From Leptogorgia sarmentosa (lineage: Eukaryota): a stretch of 64,000 nt of DNA. The stretch lies in contig OZ210884.1 in NCBI GenBank assembly GCA_964658305.1, positions 4,650,001 through 4,714,000 on the forward strand, in the 5' to 3' direction. How positions within the stretch are numbered: position 1 is the stretch's first letter; each line of letters starts with the position of its first letter. Shown here one piece after another: positions 506-33,600 of this stretch. Under the pieces are notes generated by a model, which did not search any database, had not been told where the DNA came from, and saw only the letters and a program-made list of their open reading frames with translations. The translations under genes and the position numbers were made by a program.

Positions 506-625
506 TTATACATTCACCCTTACACAAAATTTGTCTCGGACTATTACAGTAACAACGTCTTCCCCACGTTTTGTCGACGCAATGTTGAGCACGGCCACAA
601 GAAGACGCATCACACGCAGGATCAG
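506..625 (-). CDS. EGF-like exon after the SEA domain (7 Cys); last exon seen, gene continues left of the window
   Basis: tgtag|...|gtaagt, 120 nt, phase 1-1: [40 protein letters not shown]. Not in the ORF track. Confidence 0.8.
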   Translation of the reverse strand: MILRVMRLLVAVLNIASTKRGEDVVTVIVRDKFCVRVNV

Positions 626-6600: not shown

Positions 6601-9600
6601 TGGCCGTTCTATAATCATAATTATGCATTTAGCCGAGAAAAGCTGGTCAGCAGCGAACTCGAATTAGCTAAAGTGATATCACGGCCGAGCTTAAGTGAAA
6701 CTATACGCTATTGCATGACAACAGATTTTTACTGTGGCAGTACTTTTTCCATTGGATCTGACAGAAGACAAATAAGAAATGTCGACATAAATGAATTTCA
6801 ATATAAACAAGTGTTCAAGATGCTAAGACATTTTTGAATTCGACCTTCAAGTGGAAATTGGCTACTTCACATTTCCAAACCAGTCTTAGCGAATTTAATA
6901 TCCAGTCGTACACACGACTTCAAATTATATTACTAAGAATGCGTTTCGCAGAGAGAGAAAAAATGCACGTACCCACGCAATCCGTGCCATCTCCTGAATA
7001 TCCTTCCTTACATTTGCAAATAAAGGAGCCCTCTGTATTTGTGCAATTTGCCTGGGCGTGGCAATCATTCGTTGTAGAAGAATTGCATTCATTAACATCT
7101 AAAGACAAACAAATAATACAGAATTTTATACAGAATTCGTTCTGGTATAGATATTTTCTCTAATATGAATAATTTTTGCAGGCTAATTTATCCCCAAATT
7201 TATTCCAATTCCCTAATTTATCCAATTTTCTCTATAATTTATTCCCAATAAAATGTCAATTGGTCAAGACATGACCAAGTGTTCCTACAATACATGATAT
7301 AATATGGAAAATTAATATAAATCATGCGGTCAAAAATATCAAGATTGAACAATGTGCTGCCCATATTGTTAACATTTTTTACAATGATAAACAATATTTA
7401 ACTGTGTTATAATATAATTCAATCATGGTTTCGTCTATACATTGAAACAAACTGATTATTCTTTACCGGGTTATTTCTACATATTTCACTGACCTTTGCA
7501 ATCTGTACCAGAACCACTGAATCCTCCATTACAAGTACAGATATAGGATCCAAATGTCTCCGTACACGTTGCATTGCCATGGCAATCATGCATGGGGTCA
7601 GACACATCACATTCATTCACATCTAAATAATTTCAACAACTATAAATCAAATGGCAAGCATTACATCTGATAGAATGGAGGTTTGTGATTGGACGAGAAG
7701 CCTATTTGCTACTTAAAAAATGATGTTCCCAGTACGATTTAGTGGAATCACGTGGACATCACCCACCGTATATTTTTAGCGATGCTTGTCAATTGCAAGC
7801 TTAATAATGGTTTTGAATCTTTCCATATGATAATGGTATTTTATTTTTACAGAGCATAGTAGCTTGATAATTAGAGAAAGAGATCGATCCACGAACAATT
7901 TAGGTATTATAGGGAACTTCTATAGGGAACTATTTCTGGCCGACTGTTTACACGCTGGAATTGGGAAATCCAAGCTAAAGGTCAAGAGTGGACAACACAT
8001 GCACTAACGAGAAAACAACAGGATTATCGCAATCGAATAGCAATTACGGATTATCCAAATCGTGCAATTAAATGACGACAGCAAACAGTCGAATAAACAT
8101 CACTTCACACGTCCAACAGTTTTTGCCCGAAAAAAAGTCATTATAAATTTCTTCTAAACCAAAACACCAAATACGTATGTTTCAGGTAAATATTGTAAAG
8201 TTGGTAGTACAAACTTCATACAAAAGTCAAATTTGCAGTATTTTTGGCAACGCCATGTGTGTACACGTGTAATATATCCCGGAATCGAATTGCCCTTACT
8301 GTAACAGTGAGTTCCATTTCCAGTGAATCCAGTGTTGCAATCGCATCTATATGAACCAGTCAAATTAGTACAGGCAGCGTTCTCATCACAATTACTTTCG
8401 CCATTGATACATTCGTTCTTGTCTAGAAAATATGATTGATAAGAGGTTAGAAATTGAAATTGAAATTTTATTGAACATTTATCCACGTTTTTTAGATTCA
8501 TTTTCAATTTCACGCTTTTCAATTTACAACGACACATTTTCTTTACGAGAACACAAAGTGTGTACAAGGACACGCTGTTTATTAAAACTGCTGCCAGGTG
8601 TGAGGACACACACTGAGCGTAACATCACAGACACAGTATTTGCGTCGTATCACATGTCAATCTTTCTTTGAATGCGAATATATGTAGGCTATAATTCAGG
8701 AATAGAAAACATTTTCCATGTTTATATCGAGTTATGTAAACACGAGTGCAAGTTTGGAGAACGAGAAATGTGTGGAAACACGAACTCGAAGCGCGAGGGT
8801 TTCCACACATTTCGAGTTCTCCCAAACTTGCACGAGTGTTTACATAACTCAATGTAAACATAGGAAAATGTTTTCTATTATTTTTATAAAATAACACGAT
8901 GACAAAAGGGAATAACGGAATAGCAAGAGGCAGCGGGAAATAGCAACAACACGGCTGTTAGCCAATCACGCGCGCGCAGTCTTTTTCACTTACTTCCGGT
9001 TATTTTATAATGATTATTTGTAACAACATGCTAATATGATAAATTAATTGTATTCCTGCATTCTTAGATCCAAACAGTACTAGCTACCAATTGATTTTTT
9101 ACCGGGATTCATTGGAGAAAGATTTTTAATACAGTAATATATTGCAGTAAAATTCTCCGTCTTTAAATATAATTCCTCTTCTGCATAGAGGCTATTTGAG
9201 GAAAAAATAAAGTCGTAGTTTCGTTAATTTCAAAATACCCCACCGAAATTTTTGTAGTTTTGTTTTCAACGCGCAATTATAGATGAAGGGCGATGCAAAT
9301 TATTTGCCGTACCAATGCAGTTTATTCCATTTCCTTCAAATCCTTCGTTACATGTGCAATTGTAAGAACCAACAGTATTTGTACACATGGCATAGTCGTG
9401 GCAGTCGTTTTCACCCTCACATTCGTTTATCTCTGAAACACGATAGTAAAAAAGAATTTTTCATAAACATTACATGCGTTCAGTCGCAGTTTTGGTCGCA
9501 ATTATCTCTGAGTCAATGAATGCTTATAGCTGCTATCCATAATACGAGCTGGTAAAGCATATGTCATGCATGTGAATGTTACGAAAATATGAAAAGGACG

Positions 9601-12600
9601 CGAGATTCTATGAGGATTAAATGGCTATAACTATAACTGCAATGAATATGACTGTACACGTGACTATCACACTAACTGTCTTCTAACTAACTGTATTGTC
9701 TATCTAACTGTGGCTATAACTATAATGATCGCAACAACTTTTGGTATACTATGGCCATAAGCGCTACTTAATGCATATAGGACTAAATGATCAGTAATTA
9801 GTCTAATTTACCATCACACTCTGTCCCATTTCCTGTGAATCCTTCAAAACAGGTACAGTAGTAACTTCCTGATGTGTTCGTACATGTTGCATTTCCATCA
9901 CATGGCATAACGCTTTGGCACTCATCGATATCTGAAATAACATATGTGCATGTAATGAACATTTCAATTTCTCAAAATTACCCATGATTTTAATGCAGGT
10001 GATCTAACATGCTATTTCGGTAAATGTCATGGGCATACGGTCTGCATTTTTAAGGGAAGGGGAGGGGGAGGTGGCAGAAAGATCTCACGAGGCGCCACCA
10101 TGATTGGCACCGAGCGAGAAAATGTTGAACATTTAGAACTTCTAAGTTGCCAGGAACGACGATTTGAAAATACTAACTTCACTTTCTTTGTACGCTCCCT
10201 GAGGTGAACAAACAAAGGATTGTTGATATTACTTTATTCCTCAAATTTTTGCCCGAGTTATGCTCAAAATTTGCCCGAATTTTCGGCCTTGAATATTTTT
10301 CCAGTTGGGCAGTTGCACCCCTCCCCCCCCCCCCTCCCCTCTCGCCTCGCATGCCTATGGGTTATGTAGAATTATCCGGTAATGTAGAAACTAGGTGGAT
10401 CTGCTCAGTAAGCAGGTAAAATTGAACGCCATCACGAAATATAGCTTGCGGATATCTTGATACAATTCTCAAGTAATCATATCTTCTTAAGTTTTTCAAA
10501 ACTTTGGATGTAAGGTGATATGCAGTCCATGCTTTAATATCGGATTTGAAAAATTCTGCGTTCAGATGCATTTATAGTTAAAACAGAAGCAATCTTTCTG
10601 CGTACCGATGCAGTATGTTCCATCGCCTTCAAATCCTTCGTTACATGTACAGTTGTGGGAACCAACAGTATTCGTACAGTTGGCATTCTCGTGGCAATCG
10701 TTATAACCATCACACTCGTTTATCTCTGAAACACGTAAGTAAACAAAATTTTAACAACACTTTCAAAACAGTCATGTAAGTCGGAGTGGTGCATGTACGT
10801 AATAAATCTATTGAATGCTTGTAACTGTTGGCCAAAATACGACCAGGTGGCTCTAAAATCATGCAAAAACAAAGAGATACAGTGGTTGAGTGATGAGGGG
10901 CGATATATGACAAATTAATTATCAGCAAAGAAGATGTGTAAGGCTTAAAACAAATAATCATAAATGACTATATCAGTGAAACTATATTGTATTTAACGCG
11001 TGGCTTAGCTACTGTAAGTACTGCAGCTAAAATAGTGGTTATATTGACTATTGTTATAATGGTCTCTATACTCTATCAAAATTACTCGGACCACAAGCGC
11101 TATTCATGCTAATGAGATTTATATAACATGATTGTCCATATTTAAGCTAATTTACCTGTGCATACTATCCCATTGCCACTGAATCCCTCGAGACAGGTAC
11201 AGTTGTAACTTCCTTTTGTGTTCGTACATGTTGCATTTCCACCACACGGCATTATCTCGTCGCACTCATTGATATCTAAAGTAGTACATGGAGATGTATT
11301 GACAATTTCTTCCTATATATAAAATTACGCATCGCTACCTACAGGGACCGGTTGTTCACTGGGTTAGCGCTAACCCTGGGTTACAATTTGCCGCACTGTT
11401 TTAGTTTCTGTATTTCTACACGTTCGTTTATTTCAAGATTTCACTAAACAAAACTATACTATTGATCCATAAAATATCTGTGAAAAAATATGTCCAATTA
11501 AACAAGCTTCTGGGAAATTTCCTTTGAATTTTCCGCTAACTCTAGATTAAGCTAACCAACTTTTGAACAGCTGGTCCCGTATGATCTAAATTTCTATTCA
11601 GTTTAAGTAAATAAGTCAAATCTTCGTGAATATAGGTGGAATTCATGCATCAGTATTCAGATAAAATTTCCAGAACGATTATACATTTCGATAATTCACA
11701 GAACGGCAAAGATGATCTTCCTTCTTTTCATTGTGTCTATTTAGACTGTAACTACCGAGTGAAGAATGACCTAATTATGAAAAAATATTCAAACATATAG
11801 TTTGAAACAAGCTGAATTAACCGGAATCGGCATGATTTAAAAAATTGAAGGTCGCCAATGATTCATGCTATAGGTTCAGAAAATTTGCGTCACATTCAAC
11901 ATACAAGCATGTTATATTTCACAAACCTTCACAGAACGTTTCATTTCCAGTGAAACCATAATTACACATGCACCAAAATGACCCAAACGTGTTGTTGCAA
12001 AATGCATATTTATGACAAGGAGGTGGGTCATTATTACATTCATTGATATCTGCAACAGAGATTGAGAAACATTGTCCTGACAAAAATCTACGGCAAATTA
12101 AGCCATGAATATTAAATTAACCATGATTACTGGTATCGGTGAGCTATAATTATACTGGTGATTTTTTTTATAGAGATTTGGATTAGAGTAGCAGGAGGGA
12201 GAAAGGGCGAGCGGAGAAGGAGAGGGGGGAGGGGGAGGGCGATCGAGGGGAATTAGGCGAAGGGGCAAGTTAGAATAAGGGGGAGGGCTAGGGGAAACAA
12301 CAATAGTGAAGCAGGTAAATAAAACTCAGATATTTATAGTTTAGTCGAGAAAATACGTTTAAAGTATCCTTAAGCAATAATGTTTTTACTTGTGCGGTAA
12401 ACATTTTTCATTTGAATCTCATCATCAAAATCTCTTCAAAATATCATTGTTTATTGGTGTTAGAAAACCATTTTGATTTTGAAGATGGATATTTGGCCGA
12501 AAATCTATTTTCGGCAGCTAAAAATTGAGGCGAAGACTATGCTCGTCAGCCCTTCCTGTGGGTACTCACGTCAGCCCCCCTTGTTACGGTCGTGAACGGA

Positions 12601-15600
12601 TAAGAATACGAAAAAAGAAGAAGACGGAAATGAAAACAATACTGTTTTCATTAATGATGGGTTGTATGTATGGTTAATACACGATTATTACGACGAATGT
12701 GCAACCAAAAAAGGCTTATTGCGTAAACCTACCGCCACAAGCTCTGCCATCTCCAGTCAGGCCTTCATTACAACTACAAACTGGAGTACCGGTAATATTG
12801 TTGCACGACGCATTTTGATGACATATACTGCCATCTAAACATTGCACAAACTCTAGAAAAAGGAAACGGTACAATTTAAGCGGTTATATATCCTAAATGG
12901 GCAGGGGAAAATTGCTTTTCTATATATTTGAAAGAACTTTGTTCAAAATTGCAGCTTGTCACTGCTTGTGAATGTGTTTCTGTTTTGAAATGTTTTGATC
13001 ATGATGGAACTCTCAAATTAATCGTTGTCATTTACGTGTCGCAGCCACGGTTATAGCTGACTTGGTATTGAAAATAATTTTGATTGCAAACGCTAAATTA
13101 ATGAGATCAATATATCATGAAAAACTAAACGATTGCTTATTAGTCCCTCAGAGCATTTATAATGTTTGTGAAATGCTAATGTTTGCAGGCATGGCGATGT
13201 GTTACCGCATTCAAAATAATATACTATCTTCAAAGATACGTCGTGTTCTGCTAGAAGGATTTCCTTTAAAATCAGTTTTTTTTCATTTAATTTCAAAAGA
13301 AACCTGGCAGGCTGAACATGAATAATTATATGAATAATTATACCCTCACCCCCTCCCAATCAACATCCTAGATACGCCCCAGATAGCAGGTAATAATAAT
13401 TATTATGAATGCTTTTCAACGATTTGATGCTAGCCCAAAGTTAAAAGGGCATCACCGCACCACGCAAACTGTACACAAAATGTGCATTCGATAGTTTTGT
13501 AGCAATATAATTATTTGCAAGCAGCGCTCAGACCACGATTGCTTAAAAACCTAACGACAAACATATGAGTAGTAAGATGAACGAATGAAATTCGTGAAGA
13601 AAATTTGTCTGATTAGTGATTTAAAGACTATTTCTCACCTGTGCAGTCAACGCCATCGCCAGTAAACCCTTCATTACAACGACAAATGAACGATCCAAGA
13701 TTATTTTCACAAGAGGCATTGGCGTGACAAGGGTTTCCTCCACATTCATCAATATCTATATGGTTGAATGCATAGAATAAACCAAAAGTTAAGATTATAC
13801 GACTTTCTTCAGAATGTTTCGATCTCACATCCAAAGAATCATTAATAATTCCCATGAATTATTACAAAAGAAATGAATGTTGAATTCGAATAAAGTGTAC
13901 TGGACAAGGACGACGTCCATCAGGTATAAACATATAAGGTAGAAAATGACTATATGAATAAGCTCCCACTACCCCTTCTAGTACCTTCAAATATTGCAAA
14001 TTCAGTTTTTTAAGTTCCAGGACTGTTAGATCGGTCAAATCCTGACATATCTGACAGCTTGTTCTATACACGGTCGAACTTGACTTGCTGATGTTAAACT
14101 GACTAACGTTCTCAAAAATGTCCTTGATGTTTGGTAACTTTTCGTATTCAGGAAATTAAAAATATTATCATGCAGTGAAAATAGTGATCATGAAATTCTA
14201 TTTAAATTATCAACCATTAAATAATGAAAAGTTATACCTTCGCAATAGGTGCCACTCCCTGTGAAACCCGCCATACAGTTGCATTCATAGGATCCTGGGA
14301 TATCAATACATGTCGCATTATCGTGACAAACATCATCACACTCGATTATATCTGAAATAAAAAAAATTGAAAATATCAATTTATGGCTACATTTACCTTT
14401 CAGGAAGGAATTCTCCCGAACGCAGTCAGTACGGTCTACGGAAAATGATTTCTAACGCGGTATTGCTTACTATGGAAAGAAACTAAACTAAATGTTTTGC
14501 AATGGACAAAGTATTTAAAGCGTAGCTATAGTTCAAACCTTTATTTAACAAATCAAAACAATTTATTTGTAGATGCCATCAGGGTGATGACACCAAAGTC
14601 AGTTTGTCAAAAAATGTAGCACGCAGCTAAGACAAATTAAAATAATAAAAAAATTCCAAACTGCATGGTATTTTATGGAAGGGAAGCTGAATAACGATTC
14701 ACCGCAAGACACACAAGAACAATGCACATGCATGACACTAATCTAACAATGAACCCATGCAGTTAAACTAACACACGATTTATAAAACCATGAAAGCAGT
14801 ACGGCTGTACGATGAAAAAGTTTCGTTCTAATCTTTCACGATAATTTGCATGTTTGAATTGAGTAAATGTATTTTAAGCAACAAAATAAAAAAGGAAAGG
14901 TAGGTTAAAAAAATAATACAATAGTAGCTAGCTATGTAATTCAGCGTGGCAGTTTAAATGGTGAAAAAAATTTCCTAATATAAAATATACAAGTAATAGC
15001 TACACTAGTGAGTTTTACACAAATTAGCAATTCGTGTCCATTTACCTGTGCAATTTATTCCGTCTCCAGTGAAACCATCGTAACATTTACAAATATAAGA
15101 TCCATACGTATTGTTGCAGGTTGCGTTGTCGTGGCAAATTCCTTGCATACATTCATTGATATCTTAACAAATAATTTTAAAAAAAATTTATATTTCAATA
15201 ATTATATTCTTATTATTAACTTTGAATCAAGAGAAAAATAATATTACCTATGTAGCTAATGTTTCATTCCATGGGTGTTATTCATCGCGAAAATGAACAA
15301 CGAAAGCGGCATATCAATTATTATTTTTTATTTATTTAAGTTTATCTTATAACGTCAAGCAAGCATGGTATGTGTCATTTATATTATAAAAAATAACCTG
15401 TGAAATAATAAGAATTTGTTTTCATTTCACCCAGAAAAAGAAATCTGGTTAACGAACACGAATACCTTCACAACCGACGGAATATCCATCTCCTGAAGTT
15501 CCATTCATACATTGGCAATCATACGAGCCAGCTGTATTTATGCACATCGCAGTCTCATTGCATTCGTTTTGCATGTCACATTCATTTATATCTAAATAAT

Positions 15601-18600
15601 AAAGTGAATTCCGTGTATCATTTGTGCTTGATATGTTTTTAGAAAACTTGAGAAGATATTTTTCGCTGCTAGCATTTTCATCTCCATTGTATTGTATTGC
15701 ACGATTTGCGCCTGTTTTACCTCTGATAGCGTGAACGCGTGATCTATATTATGGATGGACGTGAATTCTACTTTTGTTTACCTTCACAGATCGTTCCATT
15801 AAGAAAATATCCATCATTGCACGTGCAGTTAAAGCTATCCAGCTTGTTGGTACACATGGAAAAATCTCGACAGTATGTTCCAACACAGCATTCGTTGTAA
15901 TCTTAAACGTTGAGAGTTATAATACGTTGACAAACGTTTAGAGTAAGTGTAACTATGCTGGTTTGTGAAAATCACCTGATAAAGGGGTATGGAAATGAAA
16001 ATTAGAGAGATTGAAAAGGACTAAAAATTCTTTGAATTGTGCAGAAAACTATCGTCCAGCCACTTATAAAAACATATATTACACGATTTTCGTACCAATT
16101 ATTCTTATCATTTTGATCAACACGAGGTAAAAAATCGACAATGAAGGATGATGAATACTAAAATTTCTATGTATCTTCTATCAAGAAGACACTTTAAGAT
16201 TTCTTCTTCTATTAGAGATTGCATGGTAAAAGGCAAGATTAAAATCTTGGTAGTAGATAAACTGAATTTCATTTTTTTCGCAATCCGATGAAAGGAAAGA
16301 AAAAAGGAAGAAAATCTTGATATAACTGGATTGAAATTATACATAAATGTTGGCACATACCAAATGCAACGATTAAGTTCACTGGTCCATCATTTGTGTA
16401 AAGAACATCCACCTTCCTCCATGTGCGTTTGTGATATTTGTCAATTCTGTCATTGTCTTTATCCAAGACGTACAAATGCATATAGTCTTGAGCCAAATCA
16501 ATGTCCCCGTCATAGCTAATATTGAGGGGTTTTGTCTGCCCTGTTTCCCAGAAGGTCCTCATTAAATTGTGTGTCCCTGGAGAGCCGTCAAAATTACTCC
16601 AGTAAACGACTTTATAGTGTTCATCAACAGACAATGCTTGAGCTGAGCCATCAAAGTCAATTTCTTGCGTCACAAAGGATACGATGTCAAACAAAACAAT
16701 AGGAGGATCTGATGACCTGGCAATTACCAGCAAGCTAAAAAAATGATGAAAAGTTAATTGTCTTGGTTCTGAAAAATTAATAAAATCAGGCAACTCTGCA
16801 TGCTCCCGTCGACACCTTTAAGAGAAACCCTTTCGAAGAAGCCGTAACTAGCTCCCTAGGAGCCCTTAAGAAAGGCTTAAGGATAGATAATCTATACAAT
16901 ACCTGCTACAAGGTATAATACCACTAATAACTTATACCTACAGTGTATACCTATATACGTATTTAAATCCATCATTTTCAAAAAATACTGAAACAAAGGA
17001 GAATGTGAAACATACTCATTTTTAATGTCAACCTCCAGGTCTTTTATATCGGAAAGAGAACTGAGAGCTTGAATCAGTTGATCTTGACCACTGCTAATGT
17101 TAACTGAGTGGATATCAGAGGTGAGTCTGTTCAGGTAGTACAGAACACCACGTTTACCATCGTATGCAAAATACATAATCTTGTCATTGCTCAACAGAAC
17201 CGCTGCACCCGTGCCACTCAAACTACTACTGTATAAGTTATCATTATCACCGTTGTAGTACAACAGTTTTCGATTGTTTCTGTCGTATCCTAACACACTA
17301 TCCGTTAGAGGAATCATGACGGAAGAGTTTGAAACTATGTGTGATGATGTCGAGTAGTAAAGTATTCCTTCCTCGCAGATTTCTAAAAGAAGCATCAATT
17401 GGTTCATTTTTTACTTAATCAAAACTGTATGAAAAATTTTGAACATTTAGGCTCTCTAGCTTGCCGGGAATGACCATTTCGGAGTCCTATTCGACCTTTT
17501 TAGTTGGCTTTTTTGGGTTTACAAATGAAAGATTGGTCAATAAGGTACAATTTTAATATTTTTTTAATTCCAGCATTTTCTTTTTTTGGGGGGGGGGCAG
17601 CCCCTTGGTTCGTACGTCCCCTTTTTTAAGTTTTACCTACAAATATGGCGAGATTTCCTAAACTGACGTTTTGAGAATTAGCGTAAGGGGTCAAGATCTA
17701 ACCCCATCGTCAAATCGCAATTTAGTTGGAAGTGTTTCATATACAACATATACAGTTTATCCAGGTAGATATATGAATACAATCCCATCGTATTTCCCTA
17801 CCTGTGCAGTTGAAACCATTTCCTGTGAAACCAGAGGAGCACGTACAGGTAAATGATCCCTCACTGTCAACGCAATCTGCATTTGGATCACACGCACCTC
17901 GGTTACATTCGTTAATATCTAATAAAATAATAAAACTAATGTTAGCCTCATTCGTACGTCCAATGCAGAAATTAATATGTCTTTGACATGCCAGCATGCC
18001 TAGACAAATGCCTCAAAAGTATTTTAGAACAGAATGTGGCATTCAATTTTTTAATTAATTGAAATTTGTGTTGCTTATTTTTTAATTAACATTACTTCAA
18101 ACTTTTTTATTTTATCACGAAAATTCGTTTCGAGTTCATAGAGCTTTGAAAATACTGGGCATTACCTGTATACTTACGTATATCGAATAATTTATAAGTT
18201 AAAAGATAGCTATAGTTACGTACTTATACACTCGTCTCCACTGGGTTCAAAACCTTCATTACATTCACAGACAAAGCTTCCTGGAGTGTTGGAGCATGTA
18301 GCGTTCATATGGCAAGTGTTGTTGGAGCAACATTCGTCGATATCTAGGATTCAATAAAAAAAATTATGTTAAAATATTCGGTCAGTAAAATATTATACTC
18401 CCATCGTGTTTATTTTAACGATATAGCATTAATTCTTCGGCCTTCTTGCATGCAAATCACCATAGATCCACCATAGTATAAAACAATATTTAATGTCATT
18501 ATATATTACTACAAATAAATGATCTGATAGAATGTTAACATTGTTTGCTTACCAAAGGCGATGATCAACTCTGTAACACCGGTTGTAGTATGCAACTCCC

Positions 18601-21600
18601 AAAGTTTCACCAACGTTATTCGTGAGTAAACGTCAATGCGATTGCTGTCTTTATCCAATACATAAATATATGATCTGTCTACCACGACACAGATATCTGT
18701 ATTGTACTGGATACCGAGTTCTCTAGTCATTCCCGAAGTAACATATGTACATACGACTATAAACAGGTTATTGGGCTGGTCATAGATGACCCAGTATATT
18801 GTACCATCATCAAACACGTAAAGTGATTGACCAACACCGCGATCGTATGTGATGATTCGAACTGACGCGCTTTCGCCAAGATCATACAGCACAAGCGATA
18901 AATTGTCGGCAGATATGATAATGAGTTTGCTAAAAATGACAAAATTCATAAATTAACCCACATTGATAATAATTATTTGCTACTTCAAATTTGAGTGTGC
19001 TTGAAACTTTTTTCTCTGTAGCTATAGCTATACATATATATAGCCAGAGGATTTTGTGATCATATTCGAAATAGACATACCATGTACTGAAACTAGATGA
19101 ATTGGACTAAAACCTCACTGGATGGCTTCTCAAGTTTTAAAGTTCCGTTAGGAAACTAATGAACACTTTTTATTTACTTACTCATTTGATATATCTATGT
19201 CAAGATCTTTGATGTCGGAAAAGTGAGCCAGAACGGCAACTTCGTTATTTTCCATACTTGTCAGGTTTATCATATGAATAGTTTCCAAGGCGGTGTGTAT
19301 ATAGTATATAACATTACGACGCCCATCATAAGTAAACCGTTCAACATCATCTACATTTTCCAATAAAGTTGCAATTGTGGAACCATTCAAGCGGAGTCTT
19401 GAAAACATCTCGGTTGCATCATAGGTTACAATTTCGCGATTGTGCCTGTCGTACACAAGTTGAGTGTCTTCGGATCTCAACAGCAATTTTGGCAAACGAT
19501 CACTAGCCTTGGTGTTGTAAGAGTAGATGGCAGAATTGTTTGCATAGTAGAGAATTGGTACTTGACAAAGATCTAAAAAAGAATCAGCAAAGACACGGTT
19601 TTATTTATAGGGCTCACATTCATCACAATTTTAGTGAAAGCAAACTGTTTAGATGATCAATTAATACCGGTGATGATAATGCAAAGTAAAACAGAATGGA
19701 AGAAATAACCTGAGGATGATCTCTGGAAAAAGTGAGGAATTTTGTGAAATATAAATTTGTTAAAATGATTTTTTGAAAACTTATAACAGAAATTAATAAT
19801 TAAAAATAATTCTTTTACCTTCAAGTTCACATCTGTCGCCTAAAAAGCCGAATGGACAAGTGCATTCGAAAGATGAATCACCAACATTTCTGCATGAACC
19901 ACCATTGAAGCATGGAGCACTGGCACATGAGGTATCTTTGTTATTAATGAAAGAGAAAAATACAAATTGAATGGTAATAACAAAAACAGCTAGTTAATGC
20001 AATTGTTCAAAGCTTTTGGTGTACCCAAAAGCTACCCATAATAGAAATCACTCTTTTTGCTAATTGTATAAGGGTTAGCTACTACACCTCTAGAAATTCA
20101 ATTTAATAGCATCCGACGAACATCAACACAATGACGTGTTGTTATGAAAACTTATACTTTTGTCGTTCATGTACCATTCAATTCTCAAAGTTAGCCTTAT
20201 AGCTAACAACACATATGAAACTTTTTTTAGGGCAACTATATTTCGCTTCGGTCTGTTGTACTCTCTAGTTTGTTGGAGTTTTGAGTTTAGTTTCCTTTTG
20301 AAGAATGTTATATTTTAGTATAAAAGTTTAGAAATACTCATAAGGATGTTGTTAATCAATTTATACTAAATTTGTTACCATTGGTAATACTTAGGACGCA
20401 TATCAAAGCAGATTTAAAACCAAAATATGTGATAATTTGATTGCTGCATGAAAAGTGAACCGCAAAGATTCCCAAACACTTGCTTTTCCAACTCGATTTC
20501 TCTATTCTTTCATTTCATCAATACTGAGAATTTTGTGAAATTAACAATAAAAAATTTGCGAGCTATCAAGTCGATCGAACATAATAGCTTAAACATATAC
20601 AGTATGTCCGTTTTTCTTTGCGTGTGCTTCGAGTGAATTTAAAATGTTGGTCACTCCTATAGCAACGTAATTATAGCTGCAGCGCTGTTATACCGACCAC
20701 TGACGTGGACGTCAGTACTTTCGGCTTCTCTTTTTCGCCGCGAGATAGCGTCCCACTTATTGAAATGGAATAGTATAATCCCTAGGTGAAAACTAACTGA
20801 TAAGAAAAGGAGAGAATAAAATTTTAAAACAATCAGAATACCCTTATATAAATCGTCCGTTGGAAATTGCGCTCATACTTACTGCATTGTTGATAACGAG
20901 AATCACTCAACCAATCAATGTTCACGACTGCCGAAGCACAGGCAGTGACATACGCTTCTATAGCTTGACACAAACAAACTGGAGAATCACCACCACAGGC
21001 GCATACGTCAAATACACAACCACGGATATAATTCATTGGATTAACCTTGCTTGTACAGTAATTGAAAGGAGAAAACAGCAGAGCAGAACAATTACTTGTT
21101 GCAGTCGCATTTATCTGTGGGTTGCCCTCACATGGGTTTGTTACGTTCGTTCCATTGACAGAGTTAGGAACAAAACGTTCAGTTCTCCACGAATTTCCAA
21201 AGTCTATTGAATTGCTCACGATTTCGCCTTGGGGTGTTCTTAAATCATCGTTGCGTATTCGATTAAATGTTCCGGCCAGACCGCAAGTCTTGTTGAAATA
21301 GCGACCAAACACTGTTACTCTCACGTTGTACACATTATTCCATTCAATCCTGATACCAGCACTTTCAACCCATGTTATTCTAGTGGCAGGTGAATGTACT
21401 CTAGTGACTTTACAGAAAGATAAAAAAAGAGAAAGAAATTTAAACACGGTGAAAGTGGGAAAATCAACAGTTTTCCATGTTCACAATTTTATTTATATGA
21501 AAACAATCTAAAAACTGAACCATTTCTTGAAAAGTACATGCTTTAGCTACCCATCATAGAGAATCTGAAATTTGTGTTCAACCTTTAAATCTTCAGCCTT

Positions 21601-24600
21601 GCTTACTTACCGCCGAAGTTTTGAGGCAACGTGATCGTGTTATCATTTACATCAAGAACGATTCCACGCAGGAGTTTGATAGTTACATGTGGGAAAATCA
21701 CAGTTAGCGATAGCGTACAGGAACCCTGACCGTTAACACAAGGTGCGTTCAATTGTCTCACTTCAAATGTGTTGTCTACGCAGTCTTTAGCCAGAACATA
21801 TTCGCCTGTTCCCGTAAAGTGATAAAACGTTCCATCAAATGTGGTGTAATGTGGATCGCCACCTGCTTCACTTGTTGCTTGAACTGTTATTAACATAATA
21901 ATAGATGGAGTATGTTACAAGAATACTTGTTCCAAAAAATTACAATTATATAATCATCGTGGCGATTGAAATTTAAATTCACTACATAACAATTAGACAA
22001 CGAGGCCGAGTTGTCTATGAGCGAATAGTCATCGAGGGCGAAGGCTGAGTTGTCTAATTGTTTTAGTATACACTCTATGCCCAGAATTATTTCTATCAAG
22101 AAAATTCTTCAGAAACCTCAGCAAAACGCGAGTTTTCTACAGTAGCCATATTGTTTTCCTTTGCTTTTTCGCGAACCGTCGTCTATCAGAATGTAGCATT
22201 TGTATATAATAGACGATGGTGTAACTAATACTGAATATTGAACATTCAAATGTAAATAACATAAGCATGGTCACGGCTCGAAGACATTTCGTTATTCTTA
22301 CAGACTTCCTTACCCAAGACGCAATTTTCTCCTTCACGAGCATAATCAATCTTGCAGACACATTTAAAAATATTCTCCACTTGAACACAGTTTTCGTTCG
22401 CTCCACAATTGAGAATACTGCAATTTGTTGCTGCAAAAAATAGTGTACAATTTAATAAATGATCATTGTAGTCAATTTCCTGGACGCTGATTGGCTAAAA
22501 AGCTTCAACAGCTGTGCGAATTAAACATTAATTACACCGGTTTCGCACTCGCGGTATTTCGCCAAACACGTGTGCAATTTTTCATTAATACTTCTCGAAC
22601 CGCGTGTAATTTCCTATACTAATTTATTTTGTTAGATATAATTATGATATTATGCAGTATACAAACAATACCATCAATAAGATTGCAACTAGAAATTGCT
22701 GACACTACCAGGAAAAAAAACAAGTGGGGAAAATACAAATCCACTTTGTAGGGTTAATTGGTGCCCCAACTTTTCCACAGTTACCAAAATTGTTGAATAT
22801 TGCATAACGGAGAACGATCTAGACGGCAGTAACATGCACACAATACACCATTTTCGGCAACATTTCTGAAGTTTAGATATTCCCTCATTTCCCGCTCTGA
22901 TTTATCATACCTTCGCAGTCAAAACCATCTCCTAGAAAACCTTCGCTACAGTTACAACCAAATGAACCAATCGTATTCTCACAAGTAGCATTTTCGTGGC
23001 ATGGCGATAGCTGATCACATTCGTTAATATCTATAATAAAATATATCGATGGTTCGAAGACACATGCAGTAGCTTTTATAGAACTCCTATATAAACATGG
23101 CCAGACAAAGGGGTGAAAAGGATATTTACAAATAAATACAACTTCATTATGCCGGGCAGGGCCGCCCAGAGGGGGGAGGGGCAAAGGGGGCAATTTGCCC
23201 CTGGCCCCCGGCTTGTTGGGGCCCCCAACGAGCTTTCGCAATCGCAACTCCGACTTCAACATATCCACATGAAGCTCATGAGGGGCTGAGGGGGCCCCAA
23301 GGAAAATTTTGCCCTGGGCCCCAAAAGTTGTCTGGGCGGGCCTGATGCCGGGGAAATAAATTTCAGGTGCATGCACTCCTCGGTCATGTAAAAAAGTATG
23401 CCCACAAAGTCCAAAAAGCTTTAGAAACAACAATTTGGGGCCTTAGTTTACCTTCTACAGTAATTGTTTGAATTAAAATATCTCATTATACTGAAATGGG
23501 AAGAGATTGTCCCAAAAAAAGAGCATTGTGCAACCTAATGGTTCAACGGGGCGATTTCCACGGTGCAATTTGCAATCACATTTTCGATATTTTCTCAAAT
23601 TTGCACAACAAAAACAACAACTTCCACTTTCTTTTTTTTATATTTACCTTCACAATATGTACCATTTCCAGAAAAGCCAGAAACACACGAGCAGTTAAAA
23701 CTACCAAGTGAATTAGAACATGTAGAATTGGAATGGCAGAATGTACCAGCGCAGCATTCATCTTGATCTAAATAGGCAAAATATATCACAGTTCATTGGC
23801 GTAGCAAGGACGGGGGCTGGGGAATTAAGCCCCCAAACATTTTGCAAAGGGGCTAAGCCGCCATTAAATGGAGTAAACCAATATGGTTTAAATTAAGGAA
23901 ATAAATGTTGCTTGTGTTGTTGCGGGTCAATTTCGTGAATTTGGTGTCAAAAGGTCACCCGAATAACATATTCAGGCTCCAGTATCTGAAGGCCACGAAT
24001 TTTTATAAATTCATCACGACTTTTATTATTATAGATGGTTGAATTTAAACTTGAATTAATGTAAAAAAGTCCTAACGATTTTCCCGCCTGTTTTGGTTTT
24101 TTCAACAAAGTCGGATTTTTTTTCTAATCAGTAAACAATGATTTGACAAAGAGAGCTTATGATAAACGTCTAGGTTTTTAATATTATTACTTCGATAAGC
24201 AGATAACACAATGCGTCTGCTGCACTAATTTGCTTTCTTCGCGTAAGATGTAAAAATACATTTCAGTGGACTGACTACATTTTGGTGTCACTTGTGAAAG
24301 GAAAAATCACTGTATGTCGGCAAATATTTTAACATTTATACAAGACGTTAAACTCACCATATCCAATCACAAGATCTTGAATCGCAACATCTAACGTAAT
24401 ATTCCGTGTACGCGTTAGAGAGCTCTTGAGATATATGTCAATGCGCATACTTGAGACGTACAATACGTACAGATTGAGTTCATCAGTCTCGACTTTTATC
24501 ATCTCTGGGTAGACGATATTTAACTGCGTGGTATCTCCTTGGTAGGATGTTTTAAAAACCTCGTATTCTCCTGTATTTGATCTATAACTTGCCCAGTAGA

Positions 24601-27600
24601 TGCAATTACTATGCTCATCCACTGAAATCGACTGTGCTGCAGCTGAGCCATTGTAATTAAACTGCACGACGCTCTCATCACTTGGGTTGTAACGAATGAT
24701 TGGGGGAACGTCTGCTCTTGCTATGTAGAGATAACTATGAAATGAGGAAAGGTTTTTAAATGAGAAAAAGGGATGGGTTTTCAAACTACTTGAAATATTC
24801 AAACTCTATAAAAGTGTATTATTAATTAACCCCGAATAACTTCAGTCGCTACTTATTTAATTAATTGTGTTGTTTTAGGAACAATGATCATGTGTTTGAA
24901 CATTTTAAAACGTGTCTGAGTAGCAACATCAGTTTTTAGGCAACCATTTTTAGACAAGTTTTGGTCATTGTTTATAATTATATTGCTTCCTACGAATTCG
25001 GTATACGTACCATACAGTATTTACTATTGTTATAAAATTAAAAAGAGAAATTTCATGGTCATTGATGCAATACGGTTGAGCCAGCGAGTATTTATTGTTG
25101 GCTTTCAAGTAATAACGTTGAAACTTTCAACGTTATTAGGGGTTATTTCCGCATTTGAGCGTTACACCATCACAGCACTATTCAGTGTACTGCACGTCTA
25201 AATAAATGAATATAAATACCTATTTTTCATGTCGATATCGAGGTCCTTGACACGAGTGACAGAAGACAAGGCAGCAACTGGAGAGTTCAGATCATTGGTG
25301 ATATCATACATTTGTATTGTATCGCCCCGTTCCTCATGATAATATATCATGTTATTTTCCCCATCAACAGTGAAGAATTCTACATCAGCAATGCTTTTTG
25401 TAGCAGAATTTGAACCATCCAAATCATAACTTCTGAAATCACCAGCACTAGTATAGGAATAAAGCCGCTTGTTTGCACCGTCAAACGACAACAATGCAGC
25501 ACTTGTCTGGTTAACAAAGACTGAAGGACCTTCGGACAAATTGTACGCATTGTATGATTGGATGTTAGATTGTGTTGAGAAGAATAGATATGGTATTTGA
25601 CAACGATCTGAAAAAGTAAATAAATCATTAGTTTTGAGACAAACCAAAAGTGTAAATATTATCCCCCATTCCAGTCCCGCATATGGTTGAGTAATTCAAC
25701 GGACGTCACTTTATTTACCAACGTCTTGCAAAGAGTGTTTGCACAAAAATTGCCACTTTTCTAAAGGACCAGATCTCGCTTTATCATATTGTTAAAGTCC
25801 TTGATAAATTAATGTGTTTAAATACTGTGTGTAGTTAAACTGACATTCCGATTTTCAACATGCAGGTTATCTAATCGCAAAATAACTCGACTACAACAGC
25901 TCTCCACAATCTAAAAATTCAGCTGATACCCCGTTTCAATTTAATTCCAAGGTAATGGACCATTCTATACTATGTAGCTACTACTTAAGGAATAGAAATC
26001 ATTTTCCAAGTTTACATCGAATTACATAACTCAATGTAAACATAGGAAAATGATTTCTATTATTTTTATAAAATAACAAGATGACAAAAGCGGAATAACG
26101 AAATAGCGTGAAGCAGCGGGAAATAGCTTTGCTTACATAATCTCACATCAACACGGCTGTTGGCCAATCACACGCGTGCAGTCTTTTTCACTTACTTCCG
26201 GTTGTTTTATAAATATCTTGATAAATGTTTTTACCTAAACTTTATCTGTTACAAAATGCAGAATCCCGCTCTGTAAAATATATCTGAAAAGAATGGATGT
26301 CTACAAAAAAGAGTTACCTTCGATTTCACAGCGAGCTCCTGAGAATCTAGCAAGACATGAGCAAGAGAACGATGATGGTCCATCATTTGAGCAAGTTCCG
26401 CCGTTCAAGCATGGAATGCTAGCACATGGTGTACCTATATTAACGCAAGTAAAATGATTTATTATAGTTATCTTTCAATCGGACCAGCAAGCAATTATTT
26501 TCACACATCTTCCTCAAGGATACATGGGAAGAGAAATTGTTTCAAGTAAGTCATCAAAGAAAATACTCAATCGCTAAGGTGTAATTCCCCCTTTCATAAA
26601 CTCATACATTCCCGTACTATCAGGACGAAGATTTTCTGTATACGTATGTCACGTATCTCGTGCTCGAAACTCAAATTTGTCAAAATATAAATGTCCACTT
26701 TTTGTGTTTCCAAGTCGGCAGACTCACTTAAAAAGGTGGATGGATTCATAATTTATATATTGATATCAAAATGAAAATTAAACGATTTTGGCGGGTACGC
26801 CAATTAGCCGACACATTAGTGTAAGAAAATACATGTCATACCGCATTGTTGGAAACGAGGATCACTCAACCAGTCAATGGTTACTCCAGTTGCTGCACAA
26901 TCAATGACATAAGCATCTACTGCTTGACAGAAACAAACTGCATGATCACCACCACACCCACATACATCATATTCACAATCGTCTATATAGCGTTCTGGAG
27001 AAATCCCAGTACAGTTTTCAAAAAGTGACGTTCTTAATGCAGAACAATTCGCTACGGCTGTCGCATTTCTGTCAGCATAAGTGATACATGGGTGTACCAA
27101 ATCTGTTGCATTCTCGCAGCCAGGATCAGTTTTCCAGGAATTTCCAAAGTCCACTGCATTGTCTAAAGTTGCTCCATTTTGCGCTAAGAAGTCATCGTTA
27201 GGATTTCGATTAAATGTTCCGCACAGACCACATGTTCTGTTCAGATACCGACCAAACACCGTCACTCTCACGTTATGCACATTGTTCCATTCCACTTTGA
27301 TACCATCGCCTTGTACCCATGTTATTTGGCCGTGGCGCTCCACAGTTACACCTAGAAAAGAGGAGAGAAATTTAAAATCTATATACTGTATGTATTTTTT
27401 TAAGTAACGAATTGAATGAAATGCACTTCACTATTATGTATACGACTAGTGCCGGTTACTTTGCGACAGTGTTTTTTCACAGTACTATCACCGTTAGGAA
27501 AAGATTTAATATGTGATGATAAGCAGCATCTGAAGCCTGAGCGAAGTAATATTTTAGAATTGGAAATACTTACAGCTGTATCGCGGGTAATTAACAGTAA

Positions 27601-30600
27601 TCGGTAATTAACAGCAATTGTTGAATGTAGACACTAAATCGGCAATAAGGCCTTGTCTCCGTTCGTTTGGGGGGGGGGGGGGGGGGGGAGGGGGGGGTAC
27701 TTATTGACTTATCACTTACGAACTGTTTATTACTTTTGATTCACATTTGGTCGCTTTCTGGTCATGAATTTATTGAATTAACTAGTGCACTCAAATGTCA
27801 AAAACAATTAACAATTGCTGTCAAACATTTCGCGTTAGGCGGCTGCGAATAACTTGAAACTGCTAAATCTTATTCTATCGAAACTTGTGTCTAAATTAAT
27901 TTAAAAATTTCTTCTAGTATTTTCATTTTATTGACAAAAACATGTTTTTCTTAACAAGGAAAACTTAGCGTCGCCGCTCATACTCAAACATCGCGATTTA
28001 AAACAAATTTATTGGCGGGAAATTATCACCTGATCCATATAACGAGCGAATTAGATAAGGGAAGTATCTCGTTGTGTATATTTCGGTATTTGTTGTCTTC
28101 TGTATAGCGAAATTTAACAAATCATGGTGTTGCAAATTAGTTATGAGCACTTTATCTATATTTCACGTACCATTGTATGTTGCTGGTAGAGTTATTGCGG
28201 TGTTACCATCAAGTACAATTCCGCGAAGGAGTTCGATATTTAGATTTGGCAAGATCACTCGTAACGATTTTGTGCAGGAAGGTTCTCCATTTCCACAAGG
28301 TTCATTCACCTGCCTAATTTCAAATGTGTTGTTCACGCAGTCTTTAGCCAAAACATACTCGCATCTTCCCATGAAGTCATAATATGTGCCATCAAATGTA
28401 CGGTAATGTGGATCACCTGTTGCCTCACATGTAGCCTTGACTGTATAATAAGAAAATTATTAGCAACTTGCTGACGGAGAGCGACAATATCATAATGTAC
28501 AATTCGGCATATGTACAATTCAAAATGAGCTCAAACGATGTACAGCGATGAACCTAATTATTGCACTGTACTTCGTTAAACTGACAAAAAACAGTTTCGC
28601 GTCTCCCATTGTTAACCTCTCGGTAATAAAGCGCTCACTTTCGGAATGCTCCTCGTTGTTCATTTTAACAAATTCTGCGTTAATAAATGAAATTTCATTA
28701 ATTATGAAAGCTTTTTGTGATTGTTTTCCTAAAGGGGTAATAAAAACTGCGCATTCCCCGTGGGCAATACGGGAAAATCCTGCCCCGTCGTCAGCAGCCA
28801 ATCAGATTGCGCCATTCGGCAAAAAAATGCTTTTCATATCTTTAAAAGCAGAACATAATTTATGTATCATTTCCACAACCTGTCATTGGCTGACCGGAAT
28901 ATTCCCAATAATTTTTCTCCTAATATAATTACTTTTTATTATTAACAACTAAACCCACAGGACTTTTTTAAATATAGCACAACTACGGAATATCATATTT
29001 AAATATTGCTTACTTGGACGGCAATCAGGTTCTTCATAATCATCTTTGCAGACACACTTGAATATATCGTTCACTTGGACACACTCTTCTCGTTCTCCAC
29101 AAGAAAGAATACTACAATTTGTAGCTTAAAAGAGATATAAGGGTGATTTAGCAACCTGACAGATAATATATCCACGTTGAAGTCATATTTACATTGAAGA
29201 CAGTTTTTGCAATTACCTTCACAGTTAAATCCATCACCAATGAAACCATCGTTACAGGTGCAATTATGAGAGCCGAATAAATTTCTGCACGTAGCATTTT
29301 GGTGGCAGGGACTATCTTCCATACATTCATTCACGTCTGAAAGATGTGAAACATTATTTTAATATTGATCATGAAGAATAATACAACAGTTTTGTTTACT
29401 TTTTCACTTATGTTGATAAACAGCCCTTACGGAAAATTCACATAAGATTTGACATGTGAAATGCTAATTTCACATGTGATTTAGCCAATTTCACATGTGA
29501 AACGCTAATTTCACATGTGAAATTGCCAATTCACATGCTAAATTTTTACATGTGAAATGAAATTTTATGTGATATCTTTATTTCACATGGGAATATTTAT
29601 ATGTGAAATTAAATCACATGTGAAATCTTAAATTCACATGTGAAATTTTCATATGTGAAATTCAATCACATGTGAAATCCTTATATCTCATGTGAAAATG
29701 TCTATGTGAACTTGACAAGGTTTTAATTAGCCCTGTTATAAGAAGAAAATTAATCGCATTCGTTTCTAAATTACGATTTTTTAAGTAAAACGAAATGAAA
29801 GGGAATTTTTATTGTGTTAAGTGTTTCAAACACGAATCTTACCAATCTGACAAAAAGCATTTAAAATCGCAGATATAACACTTTCGAAAAAGAAACACAG
29901 CTGCTGATTTACGTACCTATACAGTCAGTGCCATTGTTCTCAAAACCATCATTACAAGTGCAGTTAAAACCTCCCAGATAGTCAGTGCAAATAGCGTTGT
30001 CATGGCAATACGTTCCCGAACAACATTCGTCGTCGTCTATAGCAAAAAACAACCAAAAGGGGATGGTTAGTCAACAGAATAACCAACTTCGATTCATCCA
30101 AACTTATCGATGAACATGAACGTAAAACTACGCTATCAATTAGAATTAAGATCTGAAAAGATTCTGGATATAGCTACGGGGGTATTTCGTAGTTCCGGAA
30201 TTTCAAACAAACACTCGACATAATTACACCGTGAAAATTCGAAAACTCACCATATGCGACAATTATATCACGTATTTCAGCACTGTATGTGAAATTGCTT
30301 TGCACTTCAAGCGATTCTTTTGAGATTTTGTCAATGCGATTATTTTCCGTATCCAGGACATACAAATGAAGAACGTCTGATGTCAAAATGATTGGATAAA
30401 AATAGGTTATGTTCAGGTCACTTGTTTGTCCAGTGAATAGAGTTCTCATCACCCTGTGACTGCTTCCATCGTAATTAGCCCAGTATATCGCGTCATTGTA
30501 TTGATCAATAGTGATTGATTGTCCAGCACCACCAGCCATAAGGTTCATTACGTTCCCAGTTGATGGATCGTACCGTACGACGGCAGGATCAGTCGTTTTT

Positions 30601-33600
30601 GCAATGTAGAGGTAACTGTGAAGAAGGAAAATAATTTTGATAATTTTCTCCAATCACACACAGCAACAAAAAAATTTCCTCCAAAAATGTTACAACACCA
30701 AAAAAGCAACCCTAATTTAACGAAAATCTATCGATGCTTACCCATTTCTCATGTCCACTTCCATATCTTTCATTCCTGAAACAGTTGATAGTTGTGCAAC
30801 TTCACCGTCCGTACCACTTTCGATATCGTAAACATATATCTTGTCTTGTAATTCGTGATGATAATATATCAACTGGTTTCGTCCATCAACCGCGAAAAAT
30901 TCCACATCGTCGAGATCAAACTCAGTCTGGTTTGACCCATCCAACTTATAACTAAACATTTTATCGCCGGCATAAAGATATAGCCGCTTCTTCATTCCGT
31001 CGAAAGATAACCGTGCATTATTTATGTTGTCATTCACCATGCTGGGGGTATTGGTAGATTTTAGTTTGTTATGATATAGTGTACCAGAGGATGTCGAAAA
31101 GAACACATATGGTATTTGGCAACGATCTAGAGGAAAAAACGTTATATTTTGAATGAAAAGACAAGGATAAACCCAATTATATAGCTAACACAATGAACAT
31201 TAAAGCCACAGCTCTCCTAATTTCTACGCTGTTGAACCAGATTAGCCATGTTGCTTTTTTTTCCGAAATACTTGGAAAATCAATAAAACGATACCATCAC
31301 TATTTTAAAGTTTCAAACTTACTCAACGTTTATTGCGAATCGCTTTTAGCTAACATTGCTTTTTCTTTTATTATGGATCATCGTGATTGTTATACTTTTT
31401 TTCCTTCTTTTAACACAACGATTTAGTTGTTTTAAATATAGAATTTTGGTGAAAGTTAAGATACAGTCTCGTGCATTTTTTTTATATTTTAATTTACCTT
31501 CAATTTCACATCTTTCACCCATGAATCCAGCGGGACAACTGCATTCAAATGAAGAATCAACGTTCCTACAAGTTCCACCATTGCAACATGGGGCACTTGC
31601 ACATGAGCTATCTACAATGGAGAATAACAAGGCGAGCTTAATTCATATCGACATACGTGATAAAGGGAAGCTTCAACTATGACACTAGTGTTTTGCAAGT
31701 GCCATAGCATCTTATTGCACGATTTTGAAACAATTAATCTTGACTTACTGCAGATTGCGAATTGGTCCAATTGTCTCCAATGTATTGAAACATATTGAGC
31801 ACAGTCTGCAGAATAAGCATCGAGAGCTTGACAATAACAAACGTCAGGATCGTCCTTACAAGCGCACATATCGTACACACAATTATCGTAGTATCCTCTC
31901 GCAGTGGCATTAATATGGTTAGCACATGAGTTGAAGGGAGGGCTGAATAATATAGAACAGTTGGCTTGGGCTATTGAAAGCCTGCTCGAGTTAGCCATAC
32001 ATGGATGCATTACTTCCGTCGCGTTAGCACAACTAGGATCAACTTTCCAAGAATTTCCAAATTCCACTGCATCATTAACAATTGTACCATAAGATGTCCA
32101 GAAGTCGTCGTTTTCCATTTGGTTGAAATTGCCGCATAATCCAACTGTTCGATTCACATAGCGCCCCCTGATTGTCACACGAGCATTATAAACATTGTTC
32201 CAAAACACGGTCACACCGTAGTCACTTGTTATTAAGGTATATCCATTGTTAGCTTCAGATATGTTGAAACCTTTAGAGAAAACAGCAAAGTTAAAATTAA
32301 AAAGGCAATGTAGTGTTGTAAACACAACACCGTCTTACTTACCTGGGTAACTGACTGGTAGTGGTGATGATACCTCTCCACCATTTACCAAAATCATTCC
32401 TCTACGGAGTTCGATAGAATAACTTAGGAAGATCACTGTTAACGACTTTGTGCACGAATGTAATCCACTTGCACAGGGTTCATTTTTCTGCCGCACTTCA
32501 AACATGTCGCCCACAATATCTTTGGCCAAAACATATTCGCATGTCCCCATAAAGTCATAAAGCTTTCCATCAAAAGTTGAATAATGCGGATCTCCTCGGG
32601 TATGGCAACTTCTTTCAACTAGATATAAATATAGATATAAGAGTGTCACAAATGGTATGCTTAAAAATTCAAAATGAAAAATATGAGCATTTTTACACCC
32701 ATGGAAACTTTGTGTCATTAAATGGGTTAATTTCTTATTTTGGAATTTCCAATTTTATTCAATTTCGTATTATATTTGGCACCATTTATCCCCAAGTAAC
32801 GGCGCAATGGCATTAACTTCAACTGTAATAGCACCCTGGTAACGAATTGTGAATTTCCTGAAAATCGTGTTGGGGGGGGGGGGGGGTCGTCGGTCGTCAT
32901 TCCAGGTGAGTGGGAGCTCATCACCTTTCACCTGCGCTCTTGGTTTCCGTGAGAAATCAGCATGCCAACGCAAACGTTCTTGATTGTCGACGAATATTTG
33001 AAAAGTTTGAGTAGTTTATCTGAATATTTCAATTATGATCAATTGAAATTTGAATTCCAATTAGTAAACCCACTTTAAGTCGTGGAAATGATTTTCTTAC
33101 CCAGTTCGCAGTTAGGTTCTCTGTAATCAGCTTTACAAACGCATTTGAAGATGTTACCAACTTGACCACACTCTTCGTTTTCTCCACAAGAAATAACGCT
33201 GCAGTTTGTCCCTGAAAAAATGTTATCAGTCTTACTTAATTTCTAGGAAATAACGTTTTTTCAAGATAAAAAGTTTGGATATATACAAAATACGTTTGAA
33301 GCATTTGTTATTTTTTCAGAAATTTGTATAACGTGGTTGCAGCAAAGACGAATAACTCTGGAATTTCGAGATAATCCAGAAAAAATGCGTCGACTTTCTG
33401 CATGTACATGTCGAGTTATAGGAATATTTATGTATGTAAAATGTTTAACACTCTCTTCTATTCTGTTCATGTACCATCCCACCCTCACATGCATGTATCA
33501 CCGCAAAATTCTGTGTCCCACCATCATGATTATTATCATGATCACTAAGTTAGTGCAGATAATCAACTTCATTTCTATTTTTGATATGATTTTACCTTCA

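Follow-up and report, generated by a model that had tools for sequence, protein, structure and literature searches.

A GDPH-bearing VWD module without its bridging cysteines in a giant octocoral protein: a candidate non-covalent joint

Background and summary

The 64,000-nucleotide stretch of Leptogorgia sarmentosa DNA analysed here (the window; assembly GCA_964658305.1, contig OZ210884.1, positions 4,650,001 to 4,714,000 of the forward strand) holds one very large minus-strand gene of 99 exons, modelled from GT-AG exons, that encodes at least ~7,480 amino acids and is open at both window ends. The predicted protein contains nine modules in which a von Willebrand D (VWD) domain is followed by a C8 domain, and all nine carry GDPH, a motif at which VWD domains in proteins such as FCGBP cleave themselves between Asp and Pro. 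Here, we describe the ninth of these modules (module 9, positions 20883-21883), in which GDPH is intact while both cysteines of the disulfide that tethers the cut ends in FCGBP are gone, together with a second cysteine pair. Module 9 stands where the VWD array gives way to a stalk of EGF and SEA-like domains, and is a candidate non-covalent joint within a very long chain. What VWD domains gain from being cut at GDPH is, according to PMC10880436, not known.

Results

Gene and domain layout

In a six-frame scan of the window, GDPH was found on the minus strand only, at 58853, 54472, 50104, 45722, 41354, 36972, 32595, 28417 and 21860, against a mean of 0.1 occurrences in 20 shuffled windows, which bears out the nine sites listed in a first-pass annotation of this DNA. 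The 16-residue stretch with the motif exists in one version in seven modules, in a second version in one and in a third version in module 9. The repeating unit comprises VWD-C8, one EGF, a likely beta-propeller encoded by two exons and then three further EGFs; the succession of EGF and propeller after C8 is common to all nine modules. The propellers, which we take to be of the LDL-receptor-like kind, are assigned from a weak Pfam match to an upstream copy and weak Atlas matches, the Atlas search with the propeller exon staying below the recognition threshold. When the nine VWD-C8 units are aligned in spliced form, module 8 shares 50% and module 9 shares 46% identity with the array modules, and the two share 59.5% with each other. 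Downstream of module 9 the stalk leads to the SEA-like domain and one more EGF (Table 1).

Loss of two cysteine pairs in module 9

Module 9 is encoded by two exons and has the core of a D assembly, with VWD followed by C8 and both above the curated Pfam cutoffs (VWD 58.8 bits in exon A and 36.7 in exon B, cutoff 22.9; C8 60.1, cutoff 23.7). Structure prediction covered exon B alone, and in it the C8 part is modelled with a predicted local distance difference test score (pLDDT) of ~85-96 and a fold that matches mucin (MUC2), VWF and FCGBP D assemblies.

Exactly four cysteines of the aligned units (positions 4, 26, 135 and 173) are gone, and they are gone in module 9 alone among the nine; the fourth, at position 173, is replaced by Ser (TCT, 21162-21160) beside a three-residue insertion. 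These losses make up two known disulfide pairs. The pre-GDPH cysteine and the last cysteine of CGLC form the single inter-fragment bond in FCGBP (PMC8267560), which is the pairing rule from which the first-pass annotation had argued, and the FCGBP equivalents of positions 26 and 173 are C4097 and C4255, the offsets G+168 and G+176 from the motif being confirmed on the FCGBP homologue P0011. The remainder of the module is retained: GDPH is perfectly preserved despite residue differences of 54% to the array modules and 40% to module 8, and the C8 cysteines and two other VWD pairs are kept. Another pair, C34/C130, is missing from modules 1-7 and present in modules 8 and 9, a loss that the first-pass annotation does not mention. 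The 14 remaining cysteines of module 9 and the six of the preceding EGF can all be paired internally, and this local count leaves no partner to bridge GD/PH, in agreement with the earlier claim that the hold across a cut at this site would be non-covalent only.

Spare cysteines exist at a distance. The post-C8 EGF of each array unit has a seventh cysteine (APCCNGG), giving 43 cysteines per unit, where module 8 has Leu and module 9 has Phe, and the propeller of module 8 (24734-24358, minus) has one extra cysteine with no evident partner. The seven spare array thiols could form cross-links between chains.

Verification of sequence and splicing

Contigs of X7-X10 were taken as transcripts because they skip introns, none of the listed runs being on record as RNA. 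In the X7 and X8 contigs, which come from one study, the two module 9 exons are joined at GT-AG junctions and every intron from 23768 to 18224 is skipped, while many junctions of the 3' part are seen across X7-X10. The X7 contig has 0 differences over both exons. The contigs place the exon B acceptor at 21407, which rules out an alternative acceptor, and a skipped or pseudo-exon is ruled out by the splicing of both exons together with a reading frame that is open from module 8 through to the window end. An unspliced contig from a different study (X1 contig 5) has 17 differences, all outside the four codons; X8 has one difference in exon A and X4 has 19 (the positions of both are not displayed). 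The database protein P0098, 98% identical, likewise has CGLAG, the altered linker and the insertion, and with the X7 and X1 contigs it rules out an assembly or base-call error at the four codons. These codons read the same in spliced contigs and in an independent DNA contig, and the claim that module 9 alone lacks both pairs holds. Its description as the most C-terminal VWD holds within the window, beyond which the transcript continues past position 1.

Table 1. Coordinates of the gene features, numbered from the first letter of the window
Feature	Position	Strand	Basis or remark
Seven-unit array, ~4.37 kb and 670 aa per unit (VWD-C8, EGF, likely beta-propeller, three EGF)	29014..58876	-	Tether kept, C34/C130 pair lost; unit count as assembled
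Post-C8 EGFs with seventh Cys	57869-57756, 53488-53375, 49120-49007, 44738-44625, 40370-40257, 35988-35875, 31611-31498	-	Sequence
Module 8 VWD-C8, two exons, natural control	26842..28440	-	All 18 Cys present; identity to module 9, 59.5%
6-Cys EGF-like exon directly upstream of module 9, no spare cysteine	22314..22430	-	Spliced in contigs
Module 9 exon A (strand 1, GDPH, first VWD half)	21611..21883	-	Pfam VWD 1.1e-15; both splice junctions in X7/X8 contigs
Ser (AGT) replacing pre-GDPH tether cysteine, C4>S	21870..21872	-	Alignment; identical in X7 and X1 contigs
GDPH of module 9, predicted Asp-Pro self-cleavage site	21849..21860	-	Sequence
Gly (GGC) replacing GxCEY cysteine, C26>G (FCGBP C4097 equivalent, G+18)	21804..21806	-	Alignment
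Module 9 exon B (second VWD half and intact 10-Cys C8)	20883..21407	-	Pfam VWD 6.8e-9, C8 2.6e-16; spliced
Ala (GCC) replacing last Cys of CGLC (tether partner), C135>A	21274..21276	-	Alignment; Cys in 88/90 family rows
VWD-C8 linker (11 residues): fourth Cys lost, 3-residue insertion, Arg aligned to FCGBP trypsin-sensitive R4247	21160..21192	-	Alignment; low-confidence loop in model
Stalk after module 9: EGF, two likely beta-propellers, 19 further EGF exons	3932..19935	-	Many junctions in X7-X10 contigs
SEA-like domain, three exons	1858..3368	-	Pfam SEA E=7e-5, below cutoff; exons seen in contigs
Last in-window exon, EGF-like; transcript runs on off-window	506..625	-	Loose ends of 181 (X7) and 254 (X8) letters

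Relatives and rarity of the loss

The tether state was tallied at aligned columns across 455 distinct GDPH segments from 227 proteins. Both tether cysteines are kept in 434 of these and both are absent in eight (one of them a doubtful VWD), and the tether-less domains of this set occupy first, internal and last positions in their proteins. Within the family of module 9, 90 exon B rows were compared, consisting of 82 of 84 search matches, three modules from the window and five stretches taken out of longer proteins (left out were P0306, which is distant, and P0232, which is without the anchor motif, though its cysteine is present by eye). The tether partner is a cysteine in 88 of these rows, the two exceptions being module 9 and its database copy. 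In a quick tree, built by a quick search with the Shimodaira-Hasegawa-like approximate likelihood-ratio test (SH-aLRT) as sole support and with P0307 (short) and P0232 (no anchor motif) dropped, the sister of module 9 is P0251 (SH-aLRT 91), with which it shares 10 rare residues, the next best sharing seven. A metagenome scan returned 15 loci, none above 45% identity, and gave no view of the genomic neighbourhood of P0251 or of other near relatives.

Among named proteins, the nearest relatives are the octocoral proteins P0001, P0003 and P0056 (Dendronephthya gigantea) and P0004 and P0057 (Paramuricea clavata), fragments with automated names that have the same VWD-C8-EGF-propeller order and are 43-56% identical to module 9 exon B. 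They differ from it in having GLCG throughout and the pre-GDPH cysteine in all four that have a complete GDPH site, and no SEA domain was seen in these fragments; no functional study of such octocoral proteins was found in the literature searched. The Dendronephthya protein P0003 has a transmembrane segment and a Tyr-rich cytoplasmic tail with Tyr-x-x-Leu-like motifs, which suggests that the family may have a signalling or endocytic receptor role.

Tether loss is also seen further afield. The second GDPH domain of a putative FCGBP-like protein from Apostichopus japonicus, a sea cucumber, (P0002) resembles module 9 in AHIFGDPH, GTGEY, CGLAG and the missing linker cysteine, and differs in being internal, with at least two VWDs downstream, and in having Gln at G+15. 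The last GDPH domain of the FCGBP-like proteins P0024, P0026, P0030, P0033, P0070 and P0005 (five of the six from named turtle or tortoise species) has CGLAG as well; five of them keep the pre-GDPH cysteine, apparently unpaired now, and the tortoise protein P0005 is without it too. This set is possibly a snapshot of stepwise tether loss.

Comparison with known systems

MUC4 (the rat sialomucin complex, ASGP-1/ASGP-2) likewise has a GDPH VWD ahead of an EGF-bearing C-terminal part. Its GDPH-cut subunits are non-covalently associated (PMC8616066), its large N-terminal part is reported to be secreted after cleavage, and the cleavage, which has also been ascribed to a protease, is entered as pH-independent in a comparison table (PMC6696261). 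MUC4 differs in having one VWD without C8, plus NIDO, AMOP and PTS mucin domains, and no SEA domain, whereas the coral protein combines nine VWD-C8 modules with propellers, many EGFs and a SEA-like domain. Module 9 falls outside the AMOP-VWD group of MUC4 and SUSD2, as an EGF exon is spliced directly to it and a C8 is present, but by the local cysteine count it shares with MUC4 the lack of a covalent bridge across GD/PH, with distant spare cysteines in the chain. The resemblance is probably convergent.

FCGBP, the top PDB sequence match of module 9 exon A, is built like the coral array from many tandem GDPH VWD-C8 units, each with one bridging disulfide (PMC8267560). All its VWDs have the tether cysteines that module 9 lacks (PMC10880436), and it has TIL, E and FCGBP_N domains where the coral protein, whose N-terminus lies off-window, has EGF and propeller after C8. 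In SEA-type transmembrane mucins such as MUC1 and MUC17, a self-cleaved non-covalent joint has been proposed as a force-release device (PMC13643018), and the coral protein also has a SEA-like domain near its C-terminus. That in-window domain is without the cleavage motif G-S-V/I-V-V of self-cleaving SEA mucins, and the candidate joint lies instead in a VWD, ~1,740+ residues from the end.

Other features of the locus

The six full array units (58876-32619, minus) are ~99% identical in DNA with introns included (15-36 mismatches in ~4,370 bases over six pairs), suggesting recent expansion or concerted evolution. At the other end, the spliced continuation beyond 506 gives a weak hint of a second SEA domain, the next ten codons resembling a first SEA strand; with G-S-V-V-V, such a domain would provide a second non-covalent joint nearer the membrane. 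Differences between runs cluster at 3316-3330 (SEA exon) and 573-583 (last EGF exon), possibly because this C-terminal end exists as divergent alleles or has a close paralogue. No PTS domain was found within the window and no furin-type RxK/RR site in the part of the gene model that precedes its last ~620 residues. High-copy interspersed repeats, recognised by very high DNA-run depth, lie at ~21980-22190 and ~22460-22625 in the introns on either side of the EGF that precedes module 9.

Discussion

With G, D, P and H intact, module 9 has the sequence signature of a self-cleaving VWD, in which the Asp and His of the motif are required for cleavage (PMC10880436), and it is predicted to be cut. 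In FCGBP the cut is made at all GDPH sites, early in the endoplasmic reticulum (ER) and at neutral pH (PMC8267560), and in SUSD2 it is likewise made in the ER (PMC6696261). Cleavage stabilises the FCGBP domain, as the new termini are held in place by hydrogen bonds and strand 1 lies in one sheet with strands 2, 3 and 14 (PMC10880436). The joint has been called mechanically weak by the authors of the FCGBP work, there being one short sheet apart from the disulfide (PMC8267560). Given the neutral-pH cut in the ER, the stabilising effect of cleavage and the persistence of MUC4 as a heterodimer, the likeliest course for module 9 is cleavage during maturation into a MUC4-like non-covalent heterodimer that is stable at rest and parted by force or proteolysis, a reading that we hold tentatively and with slightly less than even confidence.

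By analogy with FCGBP, MUC4 and RGM, Asp-Pro cleavage would occur in the secretory pathway, with strand 1, an inner strand of its sheet, staying where it is. A single beta-strand would then be all that joins the N-terminal 5,740+ residues to the C-terminal 1,740+ residues. The halves would remain together at rest, and no other place in the chain would be as weak as the module 9 joint, because each of the eight cuts upstream would have its disulfide bridge. Shear or a protease, rather than pH, would part it. The linker offers a second such position: in FCGBP D10 mutants that stay uncleaved, the trypsin cut falls at R4247, just past the last VWD strand, and the pieces are held by C4097-C4255 (PMC10880436). 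As the second lost pair of module 9 is the one that bridges this protease-sensitive arginine, a cut at the aligned linker arginine would be unbridged as well.

Several observations weigh against this proposal. At G+15 module 9 has Thr, a residue found in two of the 455 GDPH segments (Gln in 263, Met in 142), and the equivalent FCGBP residue, Q4094, is a helper of cleavage whose replacement (Q4094A/E) leaves the domain only partly cleaved (PMC10880436). In SUSD2, removal of the inter-fragment cysteines blocked cleavage (PMC6696261). The spare upstream cysteines, carried singly by each array unit and by the propeller of module 8, could in principle provide a long-range or inter-chain bridge. Conserved VWD columns are changed at 6 of 33 positions in module 9 (mean of the others 1.4, maximum 4) and conserved C8 columns at 5 of 30, and comparisons against six outgroups, which are not independent, give module 9 a higher rate than P0251 in five (P0240 p=0.62); this divergence is compatible both with relaxed constraint and with an altered role. 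As for the EGF/SEA stalk of the first-pass annotation, a spliced SEA-like domain does follow the EGF run, but no transmembrane segment was found within the window, beyond which the gene continues. The expectation that orthologues would lose the tether specifically in their last VWD was not borne out, an outcome that the first-pass annotation had itself named as refuting: P0251, known from its exon B part only and not placed within its gene, keeps CGLCG and the linker cysteine, and the membrane-anchored P0003 has the tether in its last VWD. Together with the 88 of 90 family rows, these two indicate that the loss is lineage-specific on present evidence, so that a role in release, if there is one, would have been acquired recently and may be a by-product rather than selected.

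The best-surviving alternative, less probable but a serious one, is tolerated drift, in which module 9 is a relaxed copy where one cysteine of each pair was lost, the partner was then removed by selection against free thiols, and the site is uncut or partly cut and forms no important joint. Pairwise cysteine loss is routine in this family: besides the C34/C130 loss in modules 1-7, only 9 of the 90 rows have a cysteine at position 130, and the linker cysteine is also missing from the octocoral-like rows P0057, P0300 and P0304. The extension of the changes into C8, the rare Thr, the identical four-cysteine loss in an internal sea cucumber VWD and the scatter of other tether-less domains over first, internal and last positions point the same way, as do the displayed exon B variants, three of six of which change a residue (a small subset). 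What drift accommodates poorly is the perfect preservation of GDPH amid so much residue change, the confinement of tether loss within the family to module 9, with none in the 88 other rows, and the integrity of the C8 cysteines and the other two VWD pairs.

A stronger version of the heterodimer reading would hold that, in a single octocoral lineage, the last VWD in a surface protein of more than 7,000 residues has recently become a programmed break point through removal of both bridging disulfides. Two scissile positions, the GD/PH bond and the arginine of the linker lengthened by the insertion, would be unbridged, and a disulfide-stitched chain of at least eight VWD/propeller modules would be sloughed whole from the EGF/SEA stalk. 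We consider this account unlikely, and a selected shedding role for module 9 equally doubtful; if true, it would represent convergent MUC4-type shedding in a cnidarian.

It is still less probable that strand 1 leaves soon after the cut, so that the disulfide-linked VWD/propeller chain is secreted free into mucus or matrix and the EGF/SEA part stays behind. The reported secretion of the MUC4 N-terminal part, the remark that cleavage of domains without the disulfide could fragment a protein and the loss of two of five VWD disulfides, which should lower stability, favour such a split, while the many hydrogen bonds of the new termini, the gain in FCGBP stability on cleavage, the sheet that strand 1 shares with three other strands and the lasting association of the MUC4 subunits speak against it. 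Release of a giant ectodomain by acid-triggered cleavage, as proposed in the first-pass annotation, is very unlikely, since, even if the Thr at G+15 might retard cleavage to the point of making it conditional, FCGBP and SUSD2 are cut in the ER (FCGBP at neutral pH, with a stabilising effect), MUC4 cleavage is listed as pH-independent, the acid cleavage of MUC2 is intracellular maturation and not shedding, cutting alone leaves strand 1 in place, the cysteine loss is not conserved in relatives and no anchor lies in the window.

The general idea is not new: the discussion of PMC10880436 already states that some GDPH domains without the disulfide could fragment, and MUC4 shows it at work. The novelty lies in the context, a cnidarian protein with several VWDs that combines tethered sites with a lone untethered one bordering the stalk. 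No description of this protein was found in a search of mostly open-access literature on GDPH in octocorals, cnidaria or Drosophila Mesh, which did not extend to octocoral skeletal-proteome supplements that may list it. As the class of mechanism is known either way, the surprise is limited. Modules 8 and 9, neighbours that differ in the tether, represent a natural test of strand 1 retention and of the force needed for release. If release is not real, module 9 is one more tolerated cysteine-pair loss in a fast-evolving repeat protein; if it is, a soft coral could use this joint to replace or shed a giant coat on its surface.

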